Origin: a virus
Lineage: Duplodnaviria > Heunggongvirae > Uroviricota > Caudoviricetes
Reading direction: 5' to 3' (one strand)
Virus record (IMG/VR): IMGVR_UViG_2529292919_000024
DNA: 36,266 nt
Shown: one piece after another, positions 1-36,266 of the stretch
Position numbering within the stretch: the stretch's first letter is position 1
How the letters are laid out: every line of letters begins with the position of its first letter
The notes under the pieces: generated by a model
Told to the model about the DNA's origin: nothing
Seen by the model: only the letters and a program-made list of their open reading frames with translations
Databases searched by the model: none
Position numbers and translations under genes: made by a program

Positions 1-696
1 TCACTTAGGGTATGGCTGAACCCTGAATAGCTTGGTGTTTAGCCGCTTCCTTGCTCGCTTGTTCAGGAATCTGATGTAGCGATACTGATTAAATTTGTGC
101 ACCACGGCACGCTCTTTATTAGCCCGTAAATACACGCCTCGTTGTCCACCTCGCTTAATCGCGTTCATCGTTATCTCGTGATACCACTCACCATCCAGCT
201 CGTAGAACGTACTTTCATGACTGCCAATAAAATCAAAATTCGACGCCTGATACACAACGCCTGCGCGTCCGCAGCGTTCGTCAGCAAAGGACTGAACCCA
301 CTCCACTGACGGATACAGTAATCTGATAACTTTCAGCGCGTAGCTGATGGCCCGTGATTCAGAGTTGCGGGGCATGTCGTCGTGTAGCCACATGCGGTTC
401 AACTCCATATAGCCCCGGTTATCCGTTTCAAGCACGACACGACGACCTGAGTTGGGGTTAAGGGCATATCCCCACTGGAGAACGCCAACCAGATCGCGTC
501 CGCTGAATACCCCCAGGTGAAGGTAAGAGTTATTCACAAAACGGCGGGAATAGTGCTTTGTCTGAATAATTGTGCGGGCTAGCCAGCAGGATATGGTTTC
601 AACGCGCAGCTCCTTTGAACCATAGCCAACAATCTGGCCTTCATACTCAATAACGCACGGTTTCGTCAGAATGCGTGATTTCTTCTCTTTTCCCAC
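1..696 (-). CDS. mom: Mom DNA-modification protein (adenine N6 acetamido modification, anti-restriction)
   Basis: ORF 1..726 runs to the window edge and its sequence matches Mu Mom as I recall it. The likely start is GTG at 696..694, preceded by GGAG at a 7-nt spacing and giving 231 aa. The in-frame ATG at 726 has no Shine-Dalgarno sequence. The start overlaps the com 3' end, as in Mu. Confidence 0.85.
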
Positions 697-835
697 AATG
701 TTTCTCCGTGGGATGCTCGCAGGCATTCAGCATTATGATGTGACGTTTGCAACGCGGACACCTGATTTCAATGTGAACAAAGGAATCCGCCTTAAATAAC
801 AGTTTGTTGCAGTTTTTACAGCGAATTGATTTCAT
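647..835 (-). CDS. com: Com zinc-finger translational activator of mom
   Basis: 62-aa [16 protein letters not shown]...CPRCKRH with a C4 zinc-ribbon motif, near-identical to Mu Com as recalled. Strong RBS AAAGGAGGTGAG before the ATG; overlaps the mom start. Confidence 0.92.
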
Positions 836-944
836 CTCACCTCCTTTGCATCAATTCGCCACTATCTTAAAAAACATCGTGGGTTAAGTGTGGTTATTAG
901 GGCATAATCGATCTGTATTACCGATCGATTTGATTGATTCGATC
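836..944 (-). promoter_or_regulatory. Pmom late promoter region with upstream Dam GATC cluster
   Basis: The minus-strand sense reads CGATGTTTTTTAAGAT, a T6 run abutting the -10-like TAAGAT (plus 864..874), about 25 nt upstream of the com ATG. Three GATC sites at 910, 923 and 941 overlap the gin stop, matching the Dam/OxyR-sensitive region described for Mu mom. The same T6 plus -10 arrangement recurs upstream of lys. Confidence 0.6.
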
Positions 945-1511
945 GTCGTTTTCTATATGCGTTCGTTTCGCAGGGTGTTTTTTATACAGAGTTGAGAGGG
1001 CCACATCGTAGATCAATGCGACCTGCTTGCGGGGGATTCCTTGTGCTAATAAACGCCCGGCCTGCTCCCACTCTGCTTTGGTTAGTTTAGGTGGTCGCCC
1101 ACCAATACGGCCTTTATTTCTGGCGGCAGCAAGTCCAGCCATCGTTCGCTCGATAATTAGTTCTCGTTCCATTTCAGCCAGAGCCCCCATAACGTGGAAG
1201 AAAAAACGCCCCATTGGAGAAGATGTGTCTATGCTGTCGGTCAGACTGCGAAAATTAATCCCTCGCTCCCGTAGTTCCCCGACGAGAGAAATCAGATGTT
1301 TCATGCTTCGCCCGAGGCGATCCAGTTTCCAGACAACCAGCGTGTCACCTTTTTGAAGGCGCTTTAAAGCGCGTTTTAATCCCGGTCGGTCTGTCTTTGT
1401 CCCGCTTAATTTATCTTCAAATATTTGTTCACATCCTGCACAAACAAGAGCGTTTCGTTGCAGGTCTGTATTCTGGTCATTTGTTGATACCCTTATATAG
1501 CCAATCAGCAC
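918..1511 (-). CDS. gin: Gin serine recombinase (G-segment DNA invertase)
   Basis: 197-aa ORF beginning MLIGYIRVSTNDQNTDLQRNAL, the resolvase/invertase N-terminal catalytic motif, with a C-terminal HTH. It lies immediately next to a gix site. Start is GTG at 1511 with a GGGAG Shine-Dalgarno sequence. Confidence 0.93.
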   Translation of the reverse strand: MLIGYIRVSTNDQNTDLQRNALVCAGCEQIFEDKLSGTKTDRPGLKRALKRLQKGDTLVVWKLDRLGRSMKHLISLVGELRERGINFRSLTDSIDTSSPMGRFFFHVMGALAEMERELIIERTMAGLAAARNKGRIGGRPPKLTKAEWEQAGRLLAQGIPRKQVALIYDVALSTLYKKHPAKRTHIENDDRINQIDR

Positions 1512-1565
1512 TCTGGATCTCCCGTTTAAAAGCGCAAATCATGCCATGCAGGCCGGAAACAGCCA

Positions 1566-1599
1566 TTATCCAAAACCTCGGTTTACAGGAAACGGTAAA
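1566..1599. repeat. gix inversion site / 34-bp inverted repeat (gin-proximal)
   Basis: TTATCCAAAACCTCGGTTTACAGGAAACGGTAAA; its reverse complement recurs at 4510..4543 with one mismatch in the 26-bp core site (C versus G at core position 12); a second mismatch lies just outside the 34 bp. The 26-bp core matches the Gin recombination site as recalled. Confidence 0.9.
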
Positions 1600-2536
1600 T
1601 CAGGCTTCTGGCGCATTACAGAAAAAACAGAACGGCGCAGATATTCCAGGAAAAGATACCTTCACCAAAAATATTGGTGCCTGCCGCGCATATAGCGCAT
1701 GGCTGAATATTGGTGGCGATAGTCAGACCTGGACAACCGCACAATTCATTTCGTGGCTGGAGAGTCAGGGGGCATTTAACCATCCTTACTGGATGTGCAA
1801 AGGCTCATGGGCTTATGCAAACAATAAGGTCATTACAGATACAGGTTGCGGAAATATTTGTCTTGCAGGTGCTGTGGTGGAAGTTATTGGCACTCGCGGC
1901 GCAATGACCATACGCGTTACCACGCCGAGTACGTCCATCGGCGGCGGAATCACTAACGCTCAATTCACTTATATTAATCATGGTGATGCTTACGCTCCTG
2001 GCTGGCGACGAGACTACAACACGAAAAACCAGCAGCCTGCATTTGCTTTAGGGCAAACAGGAAGCAGGGTTGCAAATGATAAAGCTGTTGGCTGGAACTG
2101 GAATAGCGGCGTTTATAATGCAGATATCAGTGGCGCATCGACATTAATCCTCCACTTTAATATGAATGCGGGGAGTTGCCCTGCTGTACAGTTCCGCGTG
2201 AATTACAGAAATGGCGGTATCTTTTATCGTTCAGCGCGTGATGGTTATGGCTTTGAAGCTAACTGGTCAGAGTTTTACACCACAACACGCAAACCCTCTG
2301 CGGGAGATGTTGGTGCATATACGCAGGCAGAATGTAACTCAAGGTTTATTACAGGTATTCGCCTTGGCGGTCTGTCATCTGTTCAGACATGGAATGGTCC
2401 TGGCTGGTCTGACAGGTCAGGTTATGTCGTTACTGGTTCAGTTAACGGAAACCGTGATGAATTAATTGATACAACTCAGGCAAGGCCAATTCAGTATTGC
2501 ATTAATGGAACGTGGTATAACGCAGGGAGTATTTAA
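1568..2536 (+). CDS. Tail fibre alternative variable part Sv' (expressed only after G inversion, fused to Sc)
   Basis: Open frame continuous through the gix site with no start of its own. Its first residues after the gix site (IQNLGLQETVN) parallel S after its gix site ([11 protein letters not shown]), and the C-terminus (...IQYCINGTWYNAGSI) is paralogous to the S C-terminus. Confidence 0.8.
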   Translation: MQNLGLQETVNQASGALQKKQNGADIPGKDTFTKNIGACRAYSAWLNIGGDSQTWTTAQFISWLESQGAFNHPYWMCKGSWAYANNKVITDTGCGNICLAGAVVEVIGTRGAMTIRVTTPSTSIGGGITNAQFTYINHGDAYAPGWRRDYNTKNQQPAFALGQTGSRVANDKAVGWNWNSGVYNADISGASTLILHFNMNAGSCPAVQFRVNYRNGGIFYRSARDGYGFEANWSEFYTTTRKPSAGDVGAYTQAECNSRFITGIRLGGLSSVQTWNGPGWSDRSGYVVTGSVNGNRDELIDTTQARPIQYCINGTWYNAGSI

Positions 2537-2538
2537 TT

Positions 2539-3072
2539 ATGATGCACTTAAAAAACATTACTGCTGGCAATCCTAAAACAAAAGAGCAATACCAGCTAAC
2601 AAAGCAATTTAACATCAAATGGCTTTATTCAGATGATGGAAAAAACTGGTATGAGGAACAAAAGAATTTCCGGCCAGACACATTGAAAATGGCCTATGAC
2701 CATAACGGCGTTATTATTTGTATTGAAAAGGATGTTTCAGCAATTAATCCGGAAGGCGCAAGCGTCGTTGAATTACCTGATATTACAGCAAATCGCCGGG
2801 CTGATATTTCGGGTAAATGGATGTTCAAAGATGGCGCAGTGATAAAGCGAACTTATACCGGGGAAGAGCAGAGGCAACAGGCGGAAAATGAAAAGCAAAG
2901 CCTGTTGCAACTTGTCAGGGATAAAACCCAGCTATGGGACTCACAGCTACGGCTGGGCATCATTTCCGACGAGAATAAACAAAAATTAACCGAGTGGATG
3001 CTCTATGCGCAGAAAGTCGAATCTACAGACACCTCCAGCCTGCCAGTAACGTTTCCAGAACAACCAGAATGA
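2539..3072 (+). CDS. Tail fibre assembly protein U' (alternative)
   Basis: 177-aa paralogue of U with the same N-terminus ([21 protein letters not shown]). The stop/RBS/start junction with Sv' mirrors the S-U junction. Confidence 0.85.
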   Translation: MMHLKNITAGNPKTKEQYQLTKQFNIKWLYSDDGKNWYEEQKNFRPDTLKMAYDHNGVIICIEKDVSAINPEGASVVELPDITANRRADISGKWMFKDGAVIKRTYTGEEQRQQAENEKQSLLQLVRDKTQLWDSQLRLGIISDENKQKLTEWMLYAQKVESTDTSSLPVTFPEQPE

Positions 3073-3075
3073 GAC

Positions 3076-3102
3076 AAGGCCCGCTATCGGGCCTTAATTT
3101 TT
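3076..3102. terminator. Intrinsic terminator hairpin between convergent U' and U
   Basis: AAGGCCCG-CTAT-CGGGCCTT stem-loop followed by a T5 run on the plus strand. It sits between the two convergent 3' ends in the middle of the G segment, so it can serve whichever orientation is expressed. Confidence 0.6.
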
Positions 3103-3628
3103 ATTCAGGCTTTTGTGGCCATTCAGGATTTGCCGTATCCACACGGCTGACCAGAACACTGTAGCGCTCCCATGCTTCCAGTCGGCTACGCTCCTCATCT
3201 GTTGCCATGTTCAGCCTGACAGCGCGTTCCAGTGGCTGAATAACGCTTTCTGCTTCAGAAAGCAACGCGGCCTTTTGTGATTCGGCCTGTTGTTGCAGTT
3301 CCTGTTCTGTATATTCCCTCTTTACTACTTTACCATACAGAAACATCCATTTTCCGTTATTGTCTGCGCGACGATTTGCCGTAATATCAGGAACTTCAAC
3401 TATGCTTAGCCCTTCAGGATTAATAGTTGAAACGTCTTTACTGACAGCAACGATGATGTTGTTCTCATCGTAAGCAATTTTTATGGTGTCTGGCTGAAAA
3501 TTCTTTTGTTCCTCATACCAGTTTTTGCCATCTTCGCAAAAGAGCCATACCACGCCCGCTTTTTCAGTTAGCTGGTATTGTTCTTTTGTTTTAGGGTTGC
3601 CAGCAGTAATATTTTTTAAGTGCATCAT
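3101..3628 (-). CDS. U: Tail fibre assembly protein U
   Basis: Begins at ATGATG directly after the S stop, with GGAG upstream; 175 aa; paralogue of U'. The ORF-track start at 3664 is an in-frame extension overlapping S. Confidence 0.85.
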
Positions 3629-3629
3629 C

Positions 3630-5039
3630 TTAAACACTCCCCACGTTGTACCATATTCCCCCAATCAATTTCTGAATTGGCCTTCTGGCAACAGTGTCGA
3701 CAAGATCATCCGCATTGCCGTTAATTGCGGCTGTTAAAACATAACCTGACGCATCGCCAAAGCCGTAGTCGCGCCATACGTTTTTATATTCAATGCTGCC
3801 AAGACGAATATCCCGAACGACATGATTATGCAGCCATGTGCTTAACCAGTTGTTTTCCCACACTGAACCATAAATATCGCCATTAGACGCAACTTGCGCA
3901 CCACTTCCCAGAGCGAAACCGCCATCCCTTTTAAAGATGAAGTCACCACCACCATCTGAACCGTTATTAATATGAACACCATCACCACCGTTATCTTTCC
4001 ACAAAAACATACGAATACTTCCGTCTTCGTTGGTGAATGTAATGTGGTGGCGGTAATTACTTTTTAATCTAAAACTGCTGCAATTAGATTCAATATCTTT
4101 ATAAAGATGTAATCCTAACCCATCAATATGTCCGATGCGCGAACCATTTGAATAGAAGCTAATAATACCATCTCCATCTTGCCTAAATCCGGTGTCGTTA
4201 TCTCCCAGAACAATGGAGTTTTCACCCAGTGCGTTATCAGTAGCACCAATAGCTAGACCTCCTTCAATTTTGGCCCCGTGGCTGACATATATAGCACCTG
4301 TTCTCAGATTTATAGCGAATGGCCTTAATGGGCCGATATCACCGTTTTCGCCTTGTCCTTCAGCCGTCGGAATGAAATGAAGAAAATCTTCTGAACGACG
4401 GAAAATAAGACCGAAGGCATCATTGAAAATTCGCAGCGCATTCACCGTGCCAATTTTCAGTTCTCCGGTCATTTTATCGCCGGAACGCTGAACGGCGTTA
4501 CCAGCCTTGTTTACCGTTTCCTGTAAACCGACGTTTTGGATAAACAGCGGCTTATTGGGAATATCTGCTCCGTTCCGGTCTTTTGCCAGACGGGCATTGG
4601 CATTATCCATCGCAATTTTCACCGCTTTTGCGGTGGCTGCCAGCGTTTCACTGGGGCTGTCAGTGGCACTGGTTAGCTGAACGAGTCCTTTTTTGTTCAG
4701 GCTGGCATCATAGATATCCAGATTTTCACGTGCTGTACGCTGTGCTGATACCCCGGCAATTTTAATTTCGCTGAGGTTATTTTTTATCAGCAGCGCGTTC
4801 TTGTTCATGATGGCTTTAATGGACAGTGCAAGCTGGTTTAATTTTGTTTTATCCGGTTGAATACCGGCTTCTTCCAGCGTGTTTAATAACTCCGCCTGCA
4901 CAATATTAAACCAGTCCATGCCGGGCCATGTGATAACATTATTCCCGTCACCTTCTGAAAACCAGCGAACGATAGCACTACGCTGGGCGGATACGGGCGG
5001 CATGACGGTTACGCCGCTGTCGTTATCAATATAAAACAT
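3630..5039 (-). CDS. S: Tail fibre protein S (constant Sc plus variable Sv)
   Basis: 469-aa ORF. The gix site lies inside it at 4518..4543, dividing a constant N-terminal part of about 165 aa from the variable part. Glycine-rich, fibre-like composition. Confidence 0.88.
4510..4543. repeat. gix inversion site / 34-bp inverted repeat (inside S)
   Basis: Reverse complement of 1566..1599 with one mismatch in the core and one outside; the central TC crossover dinucleotide is conserved. Confidence 0.9.
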
Positions 5040-5581
5040 TAGTTATCTCCGTCATGGTAAACAAATTTATAAATCTGATGCGCGGGTTTATATTTCTCCA
5101 GTAAACACTCCAGCGCACCCGATTCATAAACACGTAACGGCGTCAGAACATTATCCAGCACCGTTGCGTTGCGATAATTTTTAATACCGTAAATATTGAC
5201 CTGCGTAACCCACTGGCCTTCTGTGGAATCCGTCAGCCTGACGGTAAAACCGTACTGCGCAGCCAGCCATTCATAAAAGCGCCGACTTAGATTGCCGGTC
5301 ATACGCATTTTATTTGCGGCAGCCCGCTGGCGTTCTGACAGGGTGCCGTTTTCGCTGGTACAGTCCGGCAACCCCAGAAATGATTCCCACTCCCCCAGAT
5401 ACCAGCGGGATGTGGAAGGGAAACGCTCCCACAGCATTTGCCGCGCATCATCCGCCGCAGTGGCAATCACGTCACTGATGGCCTGCGCCAGCGCAGATAA
5501 TTTGCTGTCGGGGCTTTTATTCCAGGCAAGCCCTGACGGCAGTAATTGCAGAAAGGCCGTCTGATAGGGTGTTACAGCCAT
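5039..5581 (-). CDS. Tail/baseplate protein (Mu gp48-like)
   Basis: 180-aa ORF immediately upstream of S; its stop overlaps the S start (TAATG). Assigned by synteny. Confidence 0.7.
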   Translation of the reverse strand: MAVTPYQTAFLQLLPSGLAWNKSPDSKLSALAQAISDVIATAADDARQMLWERFPSTSRWYLGEWESFLGLPDCTSENGTLSERQRAAANKMRMTGNLSRRFYEWLAAQYGFTVRLTDSTEGQWVTQVNIYGIKNYRNATVLDNVLTPLRVYESGALECLLEKYKPAHQIYKFVYHDGDN

Positions 5582-6654
5582 TCAATTGTCCCCGGTGTTA
5601 ACAGTTCCGTATTCTCCGAACGCTGGATCTCTGTCGGGAAACGCACTTCAAAATCATCCAGACCGGTAACACCTGCCACCGCACGGATAATACGGGAGGG
5701 GGCAAGTGCGCCGCCCGGCGTCACCTCATTAAAAAACATGGTATTAATGGCGTGGGTAATAGCCTGTTTCAGTTCGGCTGTCTTCGGTGATATATAAATC
5801 CGTGGATTTACCGGCTTTGCCTTTGGCGCAAATACCGTGACATTTACACCATCAGGCTGCCCGACAATCAGGCCGGTGATCGGGTCAGTATGACCGGCGA
5901 TATAATCCGCCACGCGTTCCACGTCTGCCGGTTGTGGAAAAATATTGCTTCGGTTATCCATAACAAACGTCACCCCGACTGTGCCACCGCCTTTCCATGT
6001 CGGAAAACACCAGGCACGGGTAACGCCGCTGACTTCACGCGCCCAGCGAACATAATCAAACTGATTACCGCCGAACGGAGGATACTGGACACGATATTCC
6101 AGCCGTGACAGCAGCTCCGCTGCACTCTCAATATCAGCCCCACCGGAAAACCCTTTTACAGTGATGGCATCGGAAACAACACAGGCAACCGGGGTGATCA
6201 ACGTTAAAAGGGTATTCTCACCGGTATTTCCTGCCTCACCGGCAGCCAGTGCGGTAACGGTAATTTCCGTCGTTCCTGCACGGTCAATCACAATGGCATC
6301 AGCCAGGCTGTAAACCACACCATCAGCACGCTGCCAGCGTGTACCGGCAGGAATGGTGGTCGCTGCCGATGTGGTGACAGTCAGCGGGCCGCTGGCGGCT
6401 GTCGCCTGTTTGCGGCGCACGCCCCAGAACCGGCAGTGCTCCAGCAACTCATCTTCATCTGCTGTCGACGGGATAATCTGCCGTCCAACCCATGAAATAT
6501 GCTCGTGACAACCGGCAGCAAGGCCCGCCTGAGCATAAGCAATGGCACTCAGCGTTTTTTCACGGGCCTGAGGCCAGCTACCCGGCAGGCGCTGTTCAAT
6601 ATTCTGTTCTGTACGGGCAATCAGCGATGATAATGTCGGTGGTGAATAAGCCAT
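5572..6654 (-). CDS. Baseplate J-like wedge protein (Mu gp47-like)
   Basis: 360-aa ORF in the baseplate cluster, assigned by position and size. Confidence 0.75.
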   Translation of the reverse strand: MAYSPPTLSSLIARTEQNIEQRLPGSWPQAREKTLSAIAYAQAGLAAGCHEHISWVGRQIIPSTADEDELLEHCRFWGVRRKQATAASGPLTVTTSAATTIPAGTRWQRADGVVYSLADAIVIDRAGTTEITVTALAAGEAGNTGENTLLTLITPVACVVSDAITVKGFSGGADIESAAELLSRLEYRVQYPPFGGNQFDYVRWAREVSGVTRAWCFPTWKGGGTVGVTFVMDNRSNIFPQPADVERVADYIAGHTDPITGLIVGQPDGVNVTVFAPKAKPVNPRIYISPKTAELKQAITHAINTMFFNEVTPGGALAPSRIIRAVAGVTGLDDFEVRFPTEIQRSENTELLTPGTIEWL

Positions 6655-7092
6655 TTAAACCCCGTTAAATGCTGCTTTAAACTCATAAGGAATAACGGAA
6701 CCATCCGGTAATGTCAGTGCAATGTAGAGGTATAACCAGCCCTGATGTAACTGTTCCGCTCTGACGTTAATCGCACTTACCCGGCCCGCTGTTTTCAGCC
6801 ATTCCAGCGCCTCTTCGGCATACCCTCTGGCGCGTTCCAGCGTATCCGGTGTGGCTTTTTCACGTGATAACAGCCACAACCGCGAACCGATGGGGCGGTC
6901 GCGGTAACTGTCACCCCACCATCCACGGCGATCATCTGAACCATCCGGCAGCGTGTCAGAATCCAGCGCGCGCCGGTCGGTAAACAGGGAGATTGTCACA
7001 TCGGTCGTCAGACTGTCGTCGGTCAGCATATCAATGCCATCCTGTGCAATATCGCCGCGTCCGTTCGTCCAGATAATGGCTAAATCGGTCAT
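6655..7092 (-). CDS. Baseplate protein (Mu gp46-like, GP46/gp25-like)
   Basis: 145-aa ORF with ATGA overlap to the upstream gene; assigned by synteny. Confidence 0.7.
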   Translation of the reverse strand: MTDLAIIWTNGRGDIAQDGIDMLTDDSLTTDVTISLFTDRRALDSDTLPDGSDDRRGWWGDSYRDRPIGSRLWLLSREKATPDTLERARGYAEEALEWLKTAGRVSAINVRAEQLHQGWLYLYIALTLPDGSVIPYEFKAAFNGV

Positions 7093-7682
7093 TGCATCGG
7101 CCCCGTGGTTCCGCCGCTGTCGCCGCGGTGGATATGCTTATCCGTCGATTTGCCATTGATGATGGCATCCGGGGCAGTAATATTGCTGTCGAACTGGCTT
7201 TTACCTTTAACGCCCAGACCTTTCTGGATCTCAACGTCGCCGGTAAACGTGGTTCTGGGTGTATCAACGGTCATACTTTCATCAGCGTAAATCTCAACCG
7301 TTTTACAGGTAATGATGCAGCGCCCGTCCTTTGTCAGCCTGATACGATGTCCCTCGTGGTGGTAAATGCCTGCATCACCCGGTTCAAGATTTGTCGGGCG
7401 GTAGCGGCGGTCTTCCACCACAACGGCAATCCCCTGATCACGTTGTGCACCCACACAGGCAATCAGCGCCTCTGCGCCCGGCAGAGGAACGCTGAAATGC
7501 CCGTAATTTTGCAGGCGCTCCACTTCATCAGATTCCTCATCATCCAGCAGACCGACCTGCAGGTTCTGAACCTTTCGCCCGTCGTTAATCACGTTAACAA
7601 CGGCACGCGCAAGCATCAGACGCACACGACGCATCAGCGGTGTCAGCAGGCGGTTCATGGCGGAATCATTTACTCTTTCCAC
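7089..7682 (-). CDS. Baseplate spike / assembly protein (Mu gp45-like)
   Basis: 197-aa ORF in the baseplate cluster. Confidence 0.7.
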   Translation of the reverse strand: MERVNDSAMNRLLTPLMRRVRLMLARAVVNVINDGRKVQNLQVGLLDDEESDEVERLQNYGHFSVPLPGAEALIACVGAQRDQGIAVVVEDRRYRPTNLEPGDAGIYHHEGHRIRLTKDGRCIITCKTVEIYADESMTVDTPRTTFTGDVEIQKGLGVKGKSQFDSNITAPDAIINGKSTDKHIHRGDSGGTTGPMQ

Positions 7683-8809
7683 GGCGGCGTTTTCTCCGGG
7701 TGTCTGCGATAATAATCTTCAACCAGCGCATCAATACCGCCGTTACTGTCGCCGCCTTTCCTGTTTTTACGGTCGCTTTCAACCGGCACCAGAAAGCCTT
7801 CGCGTGGTGCAAGGCTGACGCGGGTTTTCAGCCCGTCCTGGTCATTCAGTATCAGGGTGACTTTGCTGACCAGTAATTCCGTGGTTTTGATGGCATATTT
7901 CGAGGCATCAATAGTGACCAGCAGGTTCGGCATCCAGAGTTGCCCGTCCTTGCGAGTCCATCCGTCAATTTCAGCCTCAAAGGTGATGGATTTTGCCAGT
8001 CTGCGGCGTTGCTCACGCAGGGCGCGGGCCTGTGCATCCTTCGCCGTAATTTTGCTGTCAGCAATGATGATCATCGGTCTGTAACGGGTCACATCACTGT
8101 CAGTGGCGGTCCCTTTCCGGGAGACGATACTTTTCGCATCAATATCATCACCCTCAGCACCATTTGCGCGGGCATACCCCTTGACGGTGTATTCGCTGAA
8201 CCGGTCGCGGAAGTCTTCCTCAAAATCCAGTGTCAGCAGATTTTCTCCGAGAACCAGCTCATCAGTGGCTGTGCTGGCAGCCCGGCTGAATACCAGCTCT
8301 CCGGCGGCATTGCTGGTCATCAGTACACCGCGTGCGCGGGAGGCACGCACCAGCGCCTCATAAACGGTTTCTGAATGGTCCAGCGTGAAGCCGGGAAAAG
8401 CTGCCGAACTTTCCTTATCGGAAAGCTCCCAGCGAACGGTAACGCCATAAGGGGTGCACAGGTCACGCGCAATCTGCTCCAGTGTGCGGTTTTTCCACTG
8501 TCCGCCACTGTAAACGGCAGCACAGTCAATCAGGTCAGCCGTTTTGTCACGTCCGGCGACAGTGATTTTCATACTGTCAGCGGTCATCTGACGTCGCCGT
8601 GAATCGATATAACCGGTGCAGACAATCTGCCCCCCGATTTCGAGCGTGAACTTCTTCCCCGGTGCCAGCCCGGATAAATCCGTGCCCGGTGGCACGTTTA
8701 CCCCCAGCTCAAAATATCCGGCTACGGATTCAATCGAGCGGGTGACAGAGACTGACGTCCAGCCGGTAAAAAGCCTGCCATCCGTTCGCAGCGTGACGGT
8801 ATTACTCAT
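7670..8809 (-). CDS. Baseplate hub protein (Mu gp44-like)
   Basis: 379-aa ORF overlapping its neighbours at both ends, as expected for translational coupling. Confidence 0.75.
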
Positions 8810-10289
8810 TAATCACCTCAATACTGACACCACCGGGAACAAACAACGGGTTGCTGATACCGTTCCTGCGGGCCAGCCGTTGCCAGTTCCGGCTGTTTCC
8901 TGTGTAACGGTACAGGGCCACCATTGCAGGCATCGTCTCCGGCAGGCGGTGCGTTTCACTGCCCGCCAGTTGCAGCCCGCGTTTTTCCAGGTCGGCAACA
9001 ACCAGCAGACGCAGTTGCGTAAGCTGAACGCTGTCTGTCGAAAAGCCCTGCTCAGATGCCGTCAGAATGACGGTATCCAGTGCAGCCCCCAGCATGGCGG
9101 CTGTTTTTCCGATATCGGACACACTTTCAAATACCGGGGGCGTGGCTGTACCACTGTCTGAAAAGGATACCTGTGAAAAGCCGCCGTCCGGGGTTATGGC
9201 AGTTAACTGTAACTGTCCCTGTGTGACGGTAGCAGATGTGCTGCTGGCCCCGCTGGCTGTGCCGGTTGTGGTGGACGGGGCATCCAGTACAGGTGCACGG
9301 GCGGCATTATCCATCCGGCGACTGAAATCCAGTGCCGCAGTCAGTGCCTGGCTGGCAGCTTCTGCCCGGTATGTCTGCGCCGCTGCCAGCATGACGTAGT
9401 TCAGTGTGGCAATATTTTTTTCTGCAACCGGACTGTTGTACGAGGTTGTGATTGCCCCCTGTCTGCCTGCGGTGGCGGCATGGCGACGTTCGAATCGCTG
9501 CGCCAGACGGTTCCATGTGGAAAATGCTGTCCGGGTATCGCATAACGATGAAACGCCGGACAACGCCCCCATCAGTGAAGATGTCAGCATGGCTGGTTTA
9601 TTTATCAGGCCGGTCACAGAACCTTTCATTGCAGAAAGTGACCCCATCAGGCCGCTGACAGTCTGGGTGATCCCCAGATTATCCACCGCATCACAGATAT
9701 CATCGATGACACCGGTTACGGCATCCATTACGGCTGTTGCCGCCGCTGTGCCATCTTTTACGGTCTGCCAGACAGAGGACAGCGTATCTCCCAGCGAACC
9801 GGTTACAGCAACGGCCTGTGCCGGTACGGCTGCACTGGTGTCTGTCTCTGCGTCCGGGGCAGTATCCTGCAACGACGGATAAACGGTAACGGTGAACGCG
9901 TAATAATTCAGTTCATCCGCTTTAGTACGGCATTCCCATGAGTCCACCATGACGTCCACAGTGCCGAACTCTGGATGCACCAGTTCGCCGCTGCCCGGTG
10001 CATCAAGAGCATCCATCAGCGCACCCGCTTCATCTCTGGCTGTTTCTGCGTTGCTGTTCAGAATGCAGATGCTGAATGTGCGGGAGCGAAGTTTTTTCCC
10101 CAGGTCATTGACACCGCCGGTATCACGTAACGGGTACTCGCGTTTAACCAGACGACGTCCACCAGCCTGTTTTTGCTCCTCAATGACGAGAAACGGCACG
10201 TTACGGAACGTGCCTTTGCCGGTTGTTTTCTTACCACCGCCGATTTTATCCCGGACAGAATTAACGGCATTTAACGCATCTTCAAACAT
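8802..10289 (-). CDS. Tail protein following the tape measure (Mu gp43-like, DNA circularization protein N-like)
   Basis: 495-aa ORF directly downstream of the tape-measure gene. The letter assignment is from memory and uncertain. Confidence 0.65.
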
Positions 10290-10293
10290 GGTT

Positions 10294-12366
10294 TTACCAG
10301 CCTGTAATGTAGTTATCGCCCGCGTAAATATTCAGCCCCATACCGTCCTCGGTGACGCGGGAACTGGTCAGACGTAACCCCTCGCCAAGTTCGACGCGCA
10401 GCGAGGCTTCCGCATTCACTTTTTGTTCCTGCGGTTCCTTATCCGGGGCCGTCCATTTCTGATACAGGTCGGTTACAAAACCGCCCAGATACTCCCCGGC
10501 GACACTGCCCAGCGTGGCACCGGCAACCGTACCCAGCGGTCCGGCAAGGCTGCCAACGGCACCGCCGAGCCATGCACCGGCTGTACTGCCAATTGCGCCT
10601 GCTTTTTCATGGGGTGACGCCTGCTCATCCATCAGGACGGGGGCAAGCTGGAGTGCCCCCATTACCGGGCCACCCAGACGTGACAACGCACGACCGGCAC
10701 CTTTCCCCATCCAGCCCAGCGCCCCGGCACCTTTTGTCATAACCCGACCGATCGCACTGCCTGCAAGTTTGTTTCCGATACCGGAAAACCACCCGCCAAC
10801 AGCACGCCCGGCATCAGCCAGCTTTCCGACCGTTCCCGTAACCAGTTGCCCGGCAGCACTGCCTGCAAGCCTGCTCAGAAGACCGGATTTACCGGGTAAA
10901 GGTAATGGTGCAGGCCGTGCTGTTACCGGTACGCCGGGTGGGGGTAATGCCAGTACAGGGCGTGGTGCAGGTAATGCCAGCGGCTGTGGCCCGGACAGCA
11001 ATAACGGCTGGCGGGGTAACAGCGGGGCCATTCTTCCGCCGCTCCGTCCGCGACGACCGCCGCCACTCCCGTAGCCACCAAATCCACGGGGCCAGTTGAT
11101 GACAAACACACGCTGAATGCCGATACCCTGCAACAGCGTCTCAGACGTCATGGCATCCGGGACCGGCAGACCTGCCTGCCCACGTTTGCGGTTTCGCATC
11201 CAGCGCCACATACGACGCCCGGTTTTAAACGGATAACTGGCAACCTGCCATGAGGGTTTTGCCACAGCCCAGCCTGCTCTCAGGGCTTTATTGGCAAGCC
11301 AGACAGACACCAGAACAGCAGCCAGTTTTTTCAGGCTGACAATATTCTGGTCAACCCATGCCAGCGCATCTTTACCCGGTTTCAGCCAGCGCCATAATTC
11401 CTGTGCCGCGATTTTTACCGTTCTGAACGTGGTCAGAAATTTCTGACCAATGTTTTCTGCCAGTGCGTCAAGTTCCCCGGATTTATCCGCCATGTCGTGC
11501 CAGTTAAGCACCCGGCGCATCTCGTTCTTGATTTCTTCAAAAGGGCCGCTGTTTGCCACCTTTATGCGAAATTCAAGCAGGTTGGCTTCCATCTGGGCGA
11601 ACATCCCGTCCCAGGAGTTCATCGCACTGGCCTGTGCACCTTTTGACTGTTCTGACAGCGTTCTGAATACCGTCAGAATGGATTTCATGCCCAGCTTGCC
11701 CTTTGTACCCAGATCACGGATTTTTTTAACGTCCGTTCCCGTTGCATCCGCCAGCGCCTGATAAACGTTGATACCGTAACCGGTCAGCAGGTTGGCATCC
11801 GCCGCTGTGATTTGCTGGCGGGCAAACATCTGTTTCAGTTGCAGTGAGGCACCCTGTGCAGTGGGTAAATCCCAGCCGTGCATGGCCCCCTGATCCTGCA
11901 ACATGGTGATGAACTGTTTCGTCTGTTCATCCGTCATGCCGAAGCCTTTCGACGAACGGATCTCATCAAGAACACCACTCAGCCCCCACGTGGTGTCCTT
12001 CGCGTTCTGCTTCGCCCAGGCCATCATGGCCTGCGCTCTGGCCTTATCGCCGTGATACAGCGAGTTCATGGCGATGATCTGCTGCTCACGCTGGGCGGCT
12101 GCACCAATAAACAGTTTATTGGCGGTGTAACCCACGCCAGCGATACCCAGCGCCCCGGCTGACAGCATTCGGAATGTACGGGTTGACAGAGCCCCCATTC
12201 TGTCAATGGCACCAGAAACGCGCACAACCTCCATACGCAGGGCACGAAGGGAACTTTGCCCGCTACGGGACAGGGCGTTTATCTGGTTCGAATACTGGCG
12301 GGAACGCCGGGAAAGATTGCCATTAAGATCAATAATGACAGACGCCTTTAAGCGTTTCCCGGTCAT
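10294..12366 (-). CDS. Tail tape measure protein
   Basis: 690-aa ORF with an alpha-helical N-terminal part and a Gly/Ala/Pro-rich low-complexity C-terminal third. Positioned after sheath, tube and chaperone. AGGAAA RBS before the ATG. Confidence 0.85.
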
Positions 12367-12510
12367 AGAGATTTCCTGATTTAACGGTGATATTGAGAGA
12401 GGGTTTTAGCCTGCTGGCAGTGCCGGAAAAAGCGGGACAGCGGGAGAGACAAGGCCCATTCCGGGCCACTTTTCAGAATAACGCCAATCGCTGTCGCCGC
12501 TTTCTCAATA
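12367..12510 (-). other. Gap upstream of tape measure: candidate frameshift extension of the chaperone and/or late promoter
   Basis: 144 nt without a standard ORF. The +1 frame relative to the upstream gene is open from a G5 run near that gene's end right up to the tape-measure RBS. Position-wise a C-dependent late promoter could also sit here. Confidence 0.35.
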
Positions 12511-12945
12511 TCATTCCGGCACCGCAGCCACTCGCCCCCGTTCTTGCGTCAGCGATGCCGCCACAGCCATGTCGTGCATCTCTGTAGCCAGCGACAGACG
12601 CTGGAAGTCATCGACGGACAGCTTGCGCATCAGCGCCAGCGATAACGGGCCTTTGATGCAGCCCACGCTGGCAATCTGTCGGCGCAGCATTTCCAGTCCC
12701 ATCCGGGACGGGGAACTGACCAGCACCGGGCCTTCCTTGCTCATTACCAGCTTTTCAGCAGCCGCCTGTGCATCAATCAGATCGCCTGCGGTCAGTTCAC
12801 GCAGTGTCACGTCATACTGCATTTCAGTCTCGTCACCGGTGCCGAACGGCAGGCCGTCTTTCAGTTTCAGACCACCGGACTGAAGCTCAGCCACAATACT
12901 GTCACGCAGTTCCTGTGCTTCAGGACCTAAATTCATTTCGTCCAT
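12511..12945 (-). CDS. Tail assembly chaperone-position protein (Mu gp41-like)
   Basis: 144-aa acidic ORF between the tube gene and the tape-measure gene. Confidence 0.7.
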   Translation of the reverse strand: MDEMNLGPEAQELRDSIVAELQSGGLKLKDGLPFGTGDETEMQYDVTLRELTAGDLIDAQAAAEKLVMSKEGPVLVSSPSRMGLEMLRRQIASVGCIKGPLSLALMRKLSVDDFQRLSLATEMHDMAVAASLTQERGRVAAVPE

Positions 12946-12954
12946 TGTTTCCCC

Positions 12955-13311
12955 TTATGCAATGCGTTTGCTTTGTTTTGCCATCAGTACCAGCGAAATT
13001 TCGCCGCCGTCGTTTTTCGGTTCATCCGCCTGCCAGGCATTCGCCAGCATCCAGGTTTCACCGGTATCAGCCTGGAATTCGACGGTGATGTTTTCCCAGT
13101 CGATAATTTCATCCAGCCCGATGGGACCGCCCCCCGGAATTTTGCATTCCACTTTTGCGGCACGTGGTTTACCTTTCCAGCCATAAACCCGCGAGCCGGT
13201 CACTTCTTCACGGGTGATGCCGGAAGGCGTGAAGGAGGCACCTTCCATTGATTCAAGCTCCATGCCATTGACACGGATGAACGCCACCCCCTGACGCTGA
13301 TTTCCAGCCAT
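12955..13311 (-). CDS. M: Tail tube protein
   Basis: 118-aa ORF immediately after the sheath gene, the usual contractile-tail order. Confidence 0.8.
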   Translation of the reverse strand: MAGNQRQGVAFIRVNGMELESMEGASFTPSGITREEVTGSRVYGWKGKPRAAKVECKIPGGGPIGLDEIIDWENITVEFQADTGETWMLANAWQADEPKNDGGEISLVLMAKQSKRIA

Positions 13312-28262: not shown

Positions 28263-28292
28263 TTGCTCACCTCTCATATTAAGGAATGAGAT

Positions 28293-28709
28293 ATGAAAAT
28301 TGATTATGACGAGATAGCCAGAATATTTGATGTTTTTCTGGAGGCCGACACCGCATTCATTCGACTGGAAGATGTCGGCTGGGATCGTTCTCAGCGGCAC
28401 AGCGACAGCCATCAGAAGCTGGTTTTCCATCTTCTGTTGCTGGTTGAAAATGGTTTTATCAGCAACAGATATCTGGAAACAGGCACCGCAAAAAGCATTG
28501 GTCTCACCCCAACAAGCCTCGGATATTCATATTCAGGCACCAGTGTCAGACTCACACAAGATGGTCATGATTTTGCGAAAGCACTACATCAAAAACCAAT
28601 TCTTGAGCGCATAAAACAGGACCTTGCCGACGCCCCGATGACGCTCGTAACAGACGTCGGCAAACAGTGGTTAACCTCGTTTCTTAAAAAGAAACTCGGG
28701 ATTGAATAG
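28293..28709 (+). CDS. Opposite-strand hypothetical protein, DUF2513-like small winged-helix-type protein (candidate moron/accessory gene)
   Basis: 138-aa ORF with a strong RBS (AAGGAATGAGAT then ATG) and protein-like composition. It is the only plus-strand gene between c and the G segment. It diverges from gemA with 30 bp between the starts and overlaps the upstream early gene's 3' end convergently by 39 nt. Confidence 0.65.
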   Translation: MKIDYDEIARIFDVFLEADTAFIRLEDVGWDRSQRHSDSHQKLVFHLLLLVENGFISNRYLETGTAKSIGLTPTSLGYSYSGTSVRLTQDGHDFAKALHQKPILERIKQDLADAPMTLVTDVGKQWLTSFLKKKLGIE

Positions 28710-28982
28710 TTCCCGGTTCATACGTTGCAGCACATCAAGGGCGGCGACAGCCGCCACTTTATCGTTACCATCAGCAATAGTGCGGAGATTTTCAATAATC
28801 CAGTGAGGACTCAGTGACTCAGCAATAATGCCAAACCGGTACGCCATGACTTCATCAATAGCTTTTTCATGAGACGGCTCATATACAAAATTCACAAAGT
28901 CATGCACTTCTTTTTTCGGCAAACCACCGGCAATCAGCAGGGCGGCAAGCTCTTCTGATTTTGAAAATACACCATTATTCAT
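28671..28982 (-). CDS. Hypothetical early protein (Mu gp15-position)
   Basis: 103 aa from the ATG at 28982, which has an AAGGTGAG Shine-Dalgarno sequence. The ORF-track GTG at 28997 is a short extension. Confidence 0.6.
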   Translation of the reverse strand: MNNGVFSKSEELAALLIAGGLPKKEVHDFVNFVYEPSHEKAIDEVMAYRFGIIAESLSPHWIIENLRTIADGNDKVAAVAALDVLQRMNRELFNPEFLFKKRG

Positions 28983-31584: not shown

Positions 31585-31652
31585 TGTCAGCGTTCCTTTG
31601 CGAATTAATGTCTGGCTGTATTCGGGTTATAGCTGAATAATTTCCCCTCAGC

Positions 31653-31874
31653 TTACAGCCCAAGCTCCCTGGCTGATTTCAACAACTCCTCGGTCGCTTT
31701 TTTAATGATTTCAGGAGCCATGCTCTTGATGATGCCTGCCATTACATCATGTGGCCCGGTCTGGTCCTCAGGTGAGGATTCTTCCAGTCGCACATTCATA
31801 TTTACGGCAAAACCTCCATTTTCCTGAAACTCAATATTTCTTGTATTGTTAAATTCAAAGATTACTTTTGCCAT
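31653..31874 (-). CDS. Hypothetical early protein
   Basis: 73-aa acidic ORF. Confidence 0.5.
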   Translation of the reverse strand: MAKVIFEFNNTRNIEFQENGGFAVNMNVRLEESSPEDQTGPHDVMAGIIKSMAPEIIKKATEELLKSARELGL

Positions 31875-33338: not shown

Positions 33339-35327
33339 TTAAATGGCTTTTTTACGTCTGTTCTGTTCCAGAATATCCAGCGAATGATTCAGATATTCAT
33401 CACGCTCAGTTTCGTATTCATCATCACGCTCCTGATTCTTCACCCGTTCCGTATTACCGGAAGGCCGGAAAATACCAACAATTCGTGATTCTGGTGCTGC
33501 TGGTTCGGCTATCTGCGGCAGCAGTTCAGCAACTTCCAGCGCGTCCATTTGTTTCTGCGCCTTAATGGCTGCTTTAGTTGCAGATTTCAGTTGTTTCTGG
33601 CGGCGGCGATATTCACGGCCTGCCGCAGCATCATTAAATGCAACAGGTGCCAGACATTCCGCTTCACAGATAAACCGACCGTCCAGGGTGTAACAATAAA
33701 CCGTGCTGTGTAGCTGCTGCGGATCAAACCTGACCACAACTTTTTTCACGCCGGCATTCATTAATGCCATGTTGTAATAAACGTTTTTCGCGCCTTTAAG
33801 GGAGCCGCCAACTTTAAGCGTAAACTCGCCTTTGCGTGAAACGTTCACCGCCTCGGCAGGCAGTAACAGCATCCGTTTTTGTTCTTCGGTTGGCTTACGC
33901 ACAATCGTTCTGGCGTATTCACGCTCGAAAACATCATCAAACGAGAGTTTGCCCCCGCACATTTCTGTTTCACGGCCTGTTCTGGCATTGAACATCGCCA
34001 CACCTTCGGCAAGGGTTTTCAGAAACAGCTCTGCATCAACAGCGCGGTTGCCATAGTTATCAGGTTTTGCCTGCGGATTTGGCCCCGTATATGCGCCAGC
34101 CAGTGCCGGATGCTTATCAACGTATTCCTCAAGCCCACCAACACCGAAAGCACGTTCAACAGGTTTTGCCTGGCCCCAGCCTTTACCGGCAACAACGCTT
34201 GTCCAGTGCATTTTCGCACCCATCAGTAAAAACAATCCCTTTGGATCGTCTTCTTTCACCTTAAAGCGGTAGCGATTGGGCGCGCCTCCCGTCAGCCATT
34301 TATTCGCAGCACCACGGGTGTTATCAATGGTGATGTGAAAATCCTCCGGGATACCGTAGCGAGTCACAACATCCATGAACGAGAGGCGAATTGAATCAAT
34401 GTTCTCGCTCACATCGCAGCGCCAGCCCAGAATTTTTCGGGTTTTCACATCCTGCCAGAACCATGTTTTCGGGCGGATCACATCACCGTTAAACCAGCGT
34501 ACAAAGACGTTATGCAGATAACCGTCGCCGTTGATCCACTGCAAGGCGTCCAGGTGTTCCACAGTTCGCTGCTGTGCCGGTATCAGATGCATCAGTGCAT
34601 GTTCACCTTCACGACAGGCAACAACCATTGCCTCGTCCAGTTGCTGAATCCGGCGAAAGGCCGTGGCACGGGAGGGAATACTCCAGCCATGCTCGCGGGC
34701 TGCCAGTTCCAGACGCTCATAACATTTGCGGAAGGCGGGTTTTTCCGGTCGCAGATAATCTGCAATCAGAAACTGCCAGGCATCCTCGTCAAATTCACTT
34801 TTGTGAACATTGCGACGGGATGCACCACGTCCATCAACAAGTGCAGCCGCCCAGTCAGGCTTCGCAAACTTCTGTACCTGGTAATACTTGTCCCGCAAAG
34901 TGGATGCGCTGATCTGGTAATGCCCTGCAACGGTCGCAAAAGCCGTTTTCGTTGAAATCCCCTGGTTCAGCATTTCGTCTGCAGCCTGAACCGCAGGCAA
35001 CCATTTTTCAGCAAGTCTGCGCTGGGAATCGCTGGCTTTATCCCATTTGCTCCACAGCACCTCACGATCATAATCATGGGCTTCCAGCGTGGGGCGGGCG
35101 ATTTCAAAACGGCCCAGGCTTGTTTCAATTCTCCCTTGTTGCAACAGAATTTCAGCACGTAATGCGACAGGGAATGATTTGATATTGAATTCAAATGATA
35201 CACCTTTAGTCCCTGCAACCTGCCTGAACTCCCAGCCTTCTCTTTGTGCCTTACGTGTAATGTTAGTGGCTTGCTTTGGTAAACCTGCCAAACCGAGCAA
35301 CTCTTTTGCTGTATACCATTCTTTCAT
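33339..35327 (-). CDS. A: DDE transposase A
   Basis: 662 aa. From about residue 60 it matches MuA as recalled ([15 protein letters not shown]...) and ends ...NRRKKAI. The N-terminal roughly 60 aa differ from Mu, as described for D108. Confidence 0.95.
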
Positions 35328-35334
35328 AGCGCAC

Positions 35335-35556
35335 CTAGTATCGAGACGGCCAAATATCTTGCGGTGTCATTCCCAGTGCATCTGCAATGATTTTCTCCGC
35401 TTTCGGATATCTCTTATCCAAAGCATTTTTTAATGTTGAAGACGAAAGATGATTAGATCTTCCCAATTCAGCTAGTGACATATTGCGTTTTCGTAGCTCT
35501 GCAACGATGTCAGCTCTGTGCCAATCTTGGCGGTTAGTTCTTTTATTCATATGCAT
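35335..35556 (-). CDS. ner: Ner early-region repressor (Cro-like)
   Basis: 73-aa HTH protein, the size of D108 Ner (Mu Ner is 75 aa), directly upstream of A. Confidence 0.88.
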
Positions 35557-35741
35557 TTCATGTAATCCTTTCAGATTCCCCCGTGAGCTACGCTATAAAG
35601 TAGCTCACGGCATATCGTGCAATGTAGTGTGGAATCACTTTCAAATCAATAGTGATTTGAAAGGATTTGCCATGATTTCATATAACAGCATGATTTTTAT
35701 ATGAATTTATTTTGTCTCTATTGAAATCACTAGGATTTTAA
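35557..35741. promoter_or_regulatory. Immunity/operator region between ner and c (divergent Pe and Pc, Ner and repressor operators)
   Basis: A perfect 11-bp inverted repeat CCGTGAGCTAC with an 8-bp AT spacer lies at 35581..35610. A second dyad, CTTTCAAATCA-ATAG-TGATTTGAAAG, lies at 35638..35663. There are also AT-rich -10/-35-like hexamers on both strands. Confidence 0.7.
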
Positions 35742-36266
35742 ATGATGTCTTTTGAAATCAAAGAATGGTTTAATGCGAAAGAGCTGGAAGGGATGCCTGG
35801 TGTACCAAAGTTGGCGACTAACATTACCAGGAAAGCTGTGGCGGAAGATTGGGTAAAACGTCAGCGTCACGGTGGGAAAGGTGTCGCTTATGAGTATCAC
35901 ATCAACAGTCTGCCAGAAGAAACACGCAGGGCCATTAAAGGAGCCTCACTTTCTGATAAACCAGTGCATACATCAATCGCCCATACAGTTGATGAGAGGC
36001 TAATTTATGCAATGAGCTTCTTAACACCAGATGAGCAGGCCGCAGCTGTGGAGATCATTCGTGTGGCAGGGATTAAAGGACTTATGCCTACAATTGTCAG
36101 TAAAGATAAGGCATTAGAGGCATTAGGGATTACTGTGGAGCAACAGAAAACCCTGCAAACTCTTCAGGCATTACCACCGGAAAAAGTGAGAGAGATTTTG
36201 TCTCAGTATGAAGGCAAAGAACATAATTTCCCTGTAAGAGAAAACGATGTAAAGAAAGCTGTATAA
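35742..36266 (+). CDS. c: Lysogeny repressor c (D108-type)
   Basis: 174-aa ORF divergent from ner. Its N-terminal DNA-binding domain is homologous to the transposase N-terminus (compare [18 protein letters not shown] with [18 protein letters not shown]). Ends ...KKAV. Confidence 0.85.
   Translation: MMSFEIKEWFNAKELEGMPGVPKLATNITRKAVAEDWVKRQRHGGKGVAYEYHINSLPEETRRAIKGASLSDKPVHTSIAHTVDERLIYAMSFLTPDEQAAAVEIIRVAGIKGLMPTIVSKDKALEALGITVEQQKTLQTLQALPPEKVREILSQYEGKEHNFPVRENDVKKAV

Follow-up and report, generated by a model that had tools for sequence, protein, structure and literature searches.

The 36,266-nt stretch of caudoviricete virus DNA analyzed here (the window) very probably carries a Gin/gix host-range switch of a transposable phage of the Mu/D108 type, complete and most likely functional, in which the one mismatch between the two recombination sites is a natural variant compatible with inversion. 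The original prediction of a Gin/gix invertible G segment is borne out by an intact gin gene, an inverted pair of gix sites and two tail-fiber cassettes on opposite strands (Table 1), and we infer that this particular phage does invert the segment.

Table 1. The G segment and its surroundings, in window coordinates.
Feature	Position	Strand	Basis or remarks
gin, serine DNA invertase, 197 aa, GTG start	918..1511	-	Pfam and identity to Mu/D108 Gin
Putative sis enhancer region, first ~170 nt of gin	1342..1511 (approximate)	-	Homology only
gin-proximal gix	1566..1599 (core 1566-1591)	+	C12 at 1577; crossover TC at 1578-1579
Sv', silent alternative fiber C-terminal part	1568..2536	+	96.6% aa identity to Mu Sv'
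U', silent tail-fiber assembly chaperone, 177 aa	2539..3072	+	Caudo_TAP, 1.7e-36; 95.5% aa identity to Mu U'
GC-rich terminator-like hairpin between convergent U' and U	3076..3095		Terminator scan and fold
U-type tail-fiber assembly chaperone, 175 aa, expressed position	3101..3628	-	Caudo_TAP, 1.7e-35
S-proximal gix	4510..4543 (core 4518-4543)	-	G12 at 4532; crossover GA at 4530-4531 on the + strand
S tail fiber as assembled, 469 aa	3630..5039	-	ORF; Pfam Phage_fiber_2 and gp37_trimer

The two 34-bp inverted repeats lie where they had been placed, and the gin-proximal copy, TTATCCAAAACCTCGGTTTACAGGAAACGGTAAA, agrees at 33 of 34 bases with the reverse complement of the S-proximal one, TTATCCAAAACGTCGGTTTACAGGAAACGGTAAA. 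The sole difference falls, as had been claimed, at position 12 of the 26-bp gix core, immediately 5' of the central TC crossover dinucleotide, which is the same in both sites: the base at 1577 is a C, and that at 4532 is a C on the + strand and thus a G on the site's own strand (G12). The cores are inverted, agree at 25 of 26 positions and share the TC center. Their common motif, AAAACNTCGGTTT, occurs twice in the window against a chance expectation of 0.16, and a search of the window allowing up to 8 mismatches returned no third gix-like or quasi-gix site that could serve alternative rearrangements. In the comparison with known gix sites called for earlier, the gin-proximal core is the same, without differences, as both cores of Mu, whose pair is perfect with C12 in both, and the S-proximal core is the same, G12 included, as the S-proximal cores of D108, SfMu and PhiR68_1 (the native gix core is given in PMC3985619). 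The mismatch sits in the outer half-site, within the constant part of S, where it changes a CTC codon to GTC, i.e., Leu170 of Mu to Val170 here.

Directly beside the segment, gin specifies an invertase with a resolvase catalytic domain (Pfam Resolvase, 1.5e-50), the catalytic-serine motif YIRVST and a C-terminal helix-turn-helix (HTH_7, 2.2e-17). It shares 98% identity with Mu Gin, a protein of 193 aa, and 99% with D108 Gin, which has the same 197-aa form; the arm region (residues 120-137) is the same as in Mu. We take the Mu sis enhancer to be placed in the 5' part of gin, and a Fis-dependent sis enhancer is likewise expected within the 5' part of the gene in this phage. Over its first ~220 nt, gin hardly differs from the genes of Mu and D108, and the stretch made up of the gin-proximal gix, the spacer and these ~220 nt shows few differences from Mu, with a mean column identity of 98%. 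The title of a paper by Kahmann et al. (1985), cited in PMC10434027, places the Fis-dependent enhancer of Mu inside the invertase gene.

The fiber gene has its constant N-terminal part, Sc (4544-5039), outside the segment and its variable part inside, and the two alternative C-termini with their chaperones lie on opposite strands, both in frame with Sc. Inverting the segment in silico joins Sv' to Sc in frame, giving an unbroken S' of 488 aa with U' behind it. The open reading frames and the homology to Mu agree with the earlier view that Sv' and U' are silent on the other strand. The hairpin between the convergent chaperone genes folds at -21.9 kcal/mol (z = -4.95), and the D108 annotation has terminators at the equivalent place; a promoter scan inside the segment gave 4 hits where 6.9 were expected, hence no enrichment. 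By gene order the orientation is G(+)-like. The claim that the segment is assembled in the S-U orientation stands inasmuch as the expressed cassette is the S-side one, with a chaperone of U type; it does not extend to the receptor-binding part of S. The strict Mu G(+) state, with orthologs of Mu Sv and Mu U joined to Sc and a K-12 host range, is not what is found, the chaperone being U-type and the Sv of the kind seen in the prophage of Escherichia coli E24377A. S shares 93% identity with Mu S over residues 1-194 and is unlike it thereafter; only the last ~60 residues of Sv align with Mu, at 42%, and the Sv DNA (3630 to ~4488) has no match in the Sv of Mu or D108. On sequence identity, the expressed Sv is instead the allele of the E24377A (NC_009801) and O126:H45 MIN10 (NZ_CP069677) prophages, whose 469-aa fibers are 97% and 96% identical to the whole of S. 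The expressed U is 82% identical in amino acids to the U of Mu and D108 and 57% to U', and its gene is 77% identical in nucleotides to that of Mu and 100% to the one in the E24377A prophage.

These two prophages share the gene order over the whole 7 kb at 96.5-96.8% DNA identity; the S-proximal site has C12 in E24377A and G12 in MIN10, and both have variant gin-proximal sites. The Mu reference (NC_000929), annotated as G(+), has the same architecture and a collinear order: Sc is followed by a cassette whose chaperone is U-type, then by U' and Sv' in the opposite strand, and lastly by gin. D108 (NC_013594 / GQ357916) is like the window in gene order, in the flank inside the S-proximal gix and in its immunity end (98.7%). 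It differs in having a T at position 6 of the gin-proximal site, where the window has the Mu consensus, and in its fiber, which is 66% identical over the first ~310 residues and 25% beyond, its Sv being a different allele. SfMu (NC_027382; PMC4406740) likewise has T6 in the gin-proximal site, and the deposited genome has the Sv'-type cassette on Sc, the state opposite to that of the window. At a greater distance, the C segment of P1/P7 (cin, cix) and the Salmonella Hin/hix system, of the Din invertase family, also place a serine invertase beside an invertible segment with 26-bp sites, a 2-bp crossover and outer half-sites that are naturally non-identical; in P7, cixL and cixR have the same inner half but 4 differences in the outer one. 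The P1/P7 cassettes are related to those of G segments (86-91% DNA identity), whereas the recombinases, the crossover dinucleotides (TT in P7 cix), the constant parts and the flanking genes are different in P1/P7 and Hin/hix.

We propose that Gin dimers would bind the two inverted 26-bp sites and, with Fis on the enhancer inside gin, cut both at the common TC/GA. Exchange of the inner half-sites would invert ~2.95 kb, joining Sc alternately to the present Sv and U or to Sv' and U', and the swap of cassettes would provide a different receptor-binding fiber end together with its chaperone. Lying outside the 2-bp overlap, the C/G difference at position 12 should leave no mispaired joint; as the base would also be outside the exchanged DNA, it would never be passed to, or converted by, the other site. 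The mismatch would thus stay with Sc in both orientations, putting Val in place of Leu170 in both S and S'. The in-silico inversion leaves both gix sites reading unchanged, and because they read the same before and after inversion, the mismatch cannot bias the direction of switching.

G12 proves to be a common standing allele of the Sc-side outer half-site. Among the surveyed, fetched loci it occurs at 18 of 38 S-proximal sites and at 0 of 72 gin-proximal ones, and the MIN10 prophage joins D108, SfMu and PhiR68_1 in carrying it; its persistence is explained by its position outside the exchanged DNA. Natural gix pairs in the fetched loci are mostly imperfect, with 1-3 core mismatches, perfect pairs being a minority. 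The pairs were recovered by a mismatch-tolerant search, since the two sites of a pair differ and an exact 28-mer scan of viral contigs therefore gave only one of them per locus; a degenerate gix pattern scanned in genome contigs had 0 matches. An error of sequencing or assembly, hiding a repeat that is really perfect, might be suspected because the repeats are perfect in the Mu reference and in the prophage of E. coli W. Yet the same base is found at the same site and side in D108, SfMu, PhiR68_1, MIN10, the 12A and FDAARGOS_1059 prophages of E. coli, and numerous contigs of metagenomic and viral origin, and the neighboring Sc end and inner flank of the window (ACGGTAAACAAGGC) are also of the D108 type. 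So recurrent an allele leaves the error that the original prediction had allowed for with a next to negligible probability.

A further question is whether G12 lowers or abolishes inversion to the point that the phage is effectively locked in its present orientation. The SfMu authors described a single-bp change adjoining the crossover bases, which they speculated reduces inversion; their G12 phage had the same host range in induced and infection-grown lysates, which they read as possibly no inversion (PMC4406740). From serine-recombinase chemistry, position 12 would pair with the bottom-strand nucleotide bearing the scissile phosphate, and Gin is specific at core positions 3-2, where its arm residues are said to make contact, accepting 4 of 16 dinucleotides (PMC3616721). 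CG is, however, among the tolerated combinations (CC, CG, GG and TG), albeit in assays of a hyperactive Gin catalytic domain on zinc fingers with symmetric substitutions, not of native Fis-dependent Gin (PMC3616721); the arm residues concerned are unchanged relative to Mu. In the open-access literature we found no per-position mutagenesis of hix or gix with native enzymes, only this zinc-finger-recombinase profile and a general statement on hixC, namely that natural hix sites are asymmetric and the fully symmetric hixC inverts 16-fold slower (PMC2427008).

The relatives also speak against a block. In E. coli 12A and FDAARGOS_1059, the prophage sequences flanking the segment are 100% identical, for 1.7 kb at one end and 5.5 kb at the other. 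Both prophages carry G12 on the Sc side, and their G segments are exact reverse complements save for 2 SNPs. Essentially one G12 prophage thus occurs in both orientations, which argues against G12 blocking inversion: the pair shows that inversion has happened, and says nothing of its speed. Both orientations are also seen for the E. coli W prophage, with its perfect sites. We rejected the surveyed loci L008 and L056 as a further isogenic opposite-orientation pair, their inner segments being only 89-94% identical. G12 sites mostly adjoin Sv-type cassettes (10 places in E. coli genomes), as a locked phage might lead one to expect, but they adjoin Sv'-type cassettes in several independent records (L008, L019, SfMu and two E. 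coli genomes), and the skew is not significant, the Sv'-type cassette being adjacent at 2 of 17 G12 and 6 of 20 C12 S-proximal sites surveyed (Fisher p = 0.25). This ratio was in any case rejected as a proxy for rate, the equilibrium orientation being independent of the rate. G12 is, moreover, as common as C12 in Mu-like elements, which would be unexpected if it disabled a conserved switch. On balance a locked phage is improbable, and the G12 mismatch appears compatible with inversion.

The weaker suggestion of the original prediction, that the mismatch could modulate the frequency of inversion, finds no support here, given how common G12 is among relatives, the near-identical prophages in both orientations and the tolerance of CG. 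At most it would alter the overall rate, and any such effect is probably modest or small. That C12/G12 is a heritable tuner, with inversion in G12 phages slowed or speeded several-fold relative to Mu-type phages whose repeats are perfect, seems doubtful, with some small probability left to it; if true, lineages would differ in their hedging between host ranges. The polymorphism could also be kept for its effect on the protein rather than on recombination, the base lying within an S codon of the constant shaft shared by S and S' and both alleles being at intermediate frequency. The exchange of Leu for Val is, however, conservative, in a segment otherwise 98-99% conserved, and there is no sign of selection, neutral drift or hitch-hiking fitting equally; we consider this very improbable. 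The preferred reading remains a natural mismatch in a working switch.

As a DNA-inversion switch the G segment is textbook material, and the base change is already known: G12 has been public in the D108 and SfMu sequences for years and has been discussed in print for SfMu (PMC4406740), so that the present case has little import beyond annotation. What is added here is that G12 is common and confined to the S-side outer half-site, and that the occurrence of a G12 prophage in both orientations argues against the published speculation of blocked inversion (PMC4406740). For the annotation of this phage, the host range of Mu G(+) should not be assumed for the expressed fiber, since the part of it that binds the receptor belongs to a different allele.

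The two 34-bp repeats that bound the invertible G segment agree at 33 of 34 positions, their sole difference lying at position 12 of the 26-bp gix core. At the gin-proximal site the sequence is TTATCCAAAAC-C-TC-GG... (C12; differing base at 1577), and at the S-proximal site, on its own strand, it is TTATCCAAAAC-G-TC-GG... (G12; differing base at 4532). The TC centre is identical in both, which bears out the original prediction that the mismatch adjoins the crossover dinucleotide. The native gix core has been given as CTGT AAA CC GA GG TTT TGGA, with GA/TC as the crossover dinucleotide (PMC3985619); in that numbering the mismatch is therefore "position 2", directly adjoining the crossover. The core motif occurs twice in the window, against 0.16 occurrences expected, and a search across the window for a further quasi-gix site found none.

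Features of the G-segment region and of the compared prophage loci
Feature	Coordinates	Strand	Remark
mom	1-726	-	
com			listed between mom and gin
gin	918-1511	-	
inverted repeat, gin-proximal	1566-1599		
Sv'	1568-2536	+	
U'	2539-3072	+	
hairpin	3076-3095		
U	3101-3628	-	
S	3630-5039	-	
inverted repeat, S-proximal	4510-4543		inside S
L088 (NZ_CP077479.1) and L089 (NZ_CP066032.1)	locus 2904-13134		same Mu-like prophage, two E. coli strains, different chromosomal sites

The allele behind the mismatch belongs to the outer half-site, is common and has been reported before. The Mu reference has C12 at both gix sites; D108 carries G12 at its S-proximal site exactly as the window does, plus a T at position 6 (T6) of the gin-proximal site, and G12 also occupies the S-proximal site of SfMu, PhiR68_1 and the MIN10 prophage. 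Among sites gathered from viral contigs, metagenome contigs and annotated records, with class assigned by the outer flank, the S-proximal ones divide into 20 C12 and 18 G12, and C12 is present in 72/72 gin-proximal ones. The same allele in D108, SfMu, PhiR68_1, MIN10 and the surveyed sites makes sequencing error a very unlikely source of the mismatch. Natural gix pairs are mostly imperfect, with 1-3 core mismatches, perfect pairs being a minority; the P7 sites cixL and cixR have four differences between their outer halves and none between their inner halves. The G12 finding is already known from the literature: the SfMu paper describes the same base change and, much like the original prediction, speculates that it could reduce inversion (PMC4406740).

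Two further sequences each carry two G12 sites. E. coli 22KM0354 (NZ_CP151071.1) has them at 893323 and 1491575, one with an Sv'-type and the other with an Sv-type cassette, and therefore holds two Mu-like prophages in different states. An invertible-type segment at 3770-6473 of IMGVR_UViG_3300023289_000038 has the outer flank of the S constant region (ATAAGCCGCTGT) on both boundary sites, both G12; this contig stops 24 bp past the second site.

The invertible DNA takes in the last 12 bases of each site (GGTTTACAGGAA) but not the first 12 (TTATCCAAAACx), so that position 12 belongs to the outer half-site. On the S-proximal side it falls in the S constant region, and the codon that contains it is GTC (Val170), against CTC (Leu170) in Mu. 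Recombination at the central dinucleotide would swap the inner halves only, and inversion in silico leaves both 34-bp repeats unchanged and yields an intact 488-aa S' (Sc + Sv'), followed by U'. We infer that the mismatch leaves the overlap correctly paired and cannot be passed to the other site or converted by it, which fits the absence of G12 from every surveyed gin-proximal site. Since both sites are the same in either state, the mismatch should be unable to favour one direction and could alter only the overall inversion rate.

Three lines of evidence say that G12 does not block inversion: an inverted prophage pair, the joining of G12 to both cassette types and the tolerance of CG. E. coli O111:H2 12A and FDAARGOS_1059 (L088 and L089) carry essentially one Mu-like prophage at different chromosomal positions, in both cases with G12 S-proximal and T6 gin-proximal. 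No base differs between the two prophages in the 1,692 bp that flank the segment on the gin side or in the 5,491 bp on the S side, and the G segments are exact reverse complements but for two SNPs (locus 5319 and 5361), with breakpoints within the repeats; the pair is evidence that inversion has occurred and is silent on its rate. G12 is joined to an Sv'-type cassette in two fetched loci (L008 and L019), SfMu and two E. coli genomes, and to an Sv-type cassette in the window, D108, PhiR68_1 and ten places in E. coli genomes. In the substrate profile of the activated Gin catalytic domain, obtained with a hyperactive zinc-finger fusion, positions 3-2 tolerate only CC, CG, GG and TG (PMC3616721), and the variant half-site of the window has CG there. 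Gin residues 120-137 have been implicated in reading these positions (PMC3616721); window Gin equals Mu Gin across them, and thus gives no sign of co-adaptation. Natural hix sites are asymmetric too, and inversion at a fully symmetric site was reportedly 16-fold slower (PMC2427008). One observation points the other way: host range was unchanged in SfMu lysates, which the authors took as possibly meaning no inversion, although they also suggest that particles of the other type may infect hosts outside their test set (PMC4406740). The mismatch is compatible with inversion.

Judged from its sequence, the region appears to be an ordinary, complete Mu/D108-type G-segment switch. Window Gin, with its Resolvase and HTH_7 domains, shares 98% identity with Mu Gin and 99% with D108 Gin, and there are few differences from Mu between the gin-proximal gix and the first ~220 nt of gin. 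Kahmann and colleagues reportedly located the Fis-dependent enhancer of Mu inside the invertase gene in 1985, and on grounds of homology such an enhancer is probably present in the window gin. A strong hairpin lies between the convergent U' and U genes, at the position where D108 has annotated terminators.

The predicted S-U orientation holds as topology, the gene order being that of the G(+) Mu reference. The silent cassette is Mu-like (amino-acid identity 96.6% for Sv', 95.5% for U'). The expressed S is Mu-like only up to about residue 194, and nothing in Mu or D108 matches the DNA of 3629-4488. Over its full length, S shares 97% identity with the E24377A prophage fibre and 96% with the MIN10 fibre. 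The expressed U is 82% identical to Mu U, its DNA being 100% identical to the E24377A gene. These comparisons indicate that the expressed cassette is not Mu's, so the Mu G(+) host range is not to be assumed.

From mom (base 1) to the immunity end, the window runs collinear with Mu in reverse complement, at ~98% identity across most of its length. The immunity end itself, 35140-36266 (c, ner and the start of A), is of the D108 type (98.7%) with no Mu match, so the phage is a Mu/D108 mosaic. In the early (semi-essential) region, 28263-28972 and 31600-31841 are without a match in Mu; the former has a partial match in SfMu and in the Yersinia Mu-like phages vB_YpM_5 and vB_YpM_6, at 95.8% identity over 45% of the query.

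Within the cassettes, the 5' ends of U' and U form a 62-nt inverted repeat (2539-2600 and 3567-3628; 95% identical), beyond which the genes are only about 70% alike. Constraint on the N-termini of the chaperones, or gene conversion there, may account for this similarity, and homologous recombination between the two copies might invert the inner 1 kb. In IMGVR_UViG_2690316161_000025 two copies of the U/U'/gin block (1125-4128 and 9245-12248), 8.1 kb apart, give the same match statistics; they represent either a tandem duplication or an artefact of assembly. Outside Mu-type surroundings, the invertible module alone (window 1566-4543 or a little less) turns up at 92-98% identity on E. coli chromosomes and on plasmids of about 90-130 kb; the cassette pair therefore travels from one phage type to another as a single unit with the recombination sites as its ends. 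In the Mu-type prophage of E. coli W, two assemblies (NC_017664.1 292815-300120 and NC_017635.1, same coordinates) differ across a 7.3-kb stretch only by exact inversion of the G segment (locus 1700-4715, with a perfect gix pair), a clean instance of the switch caught in both states.
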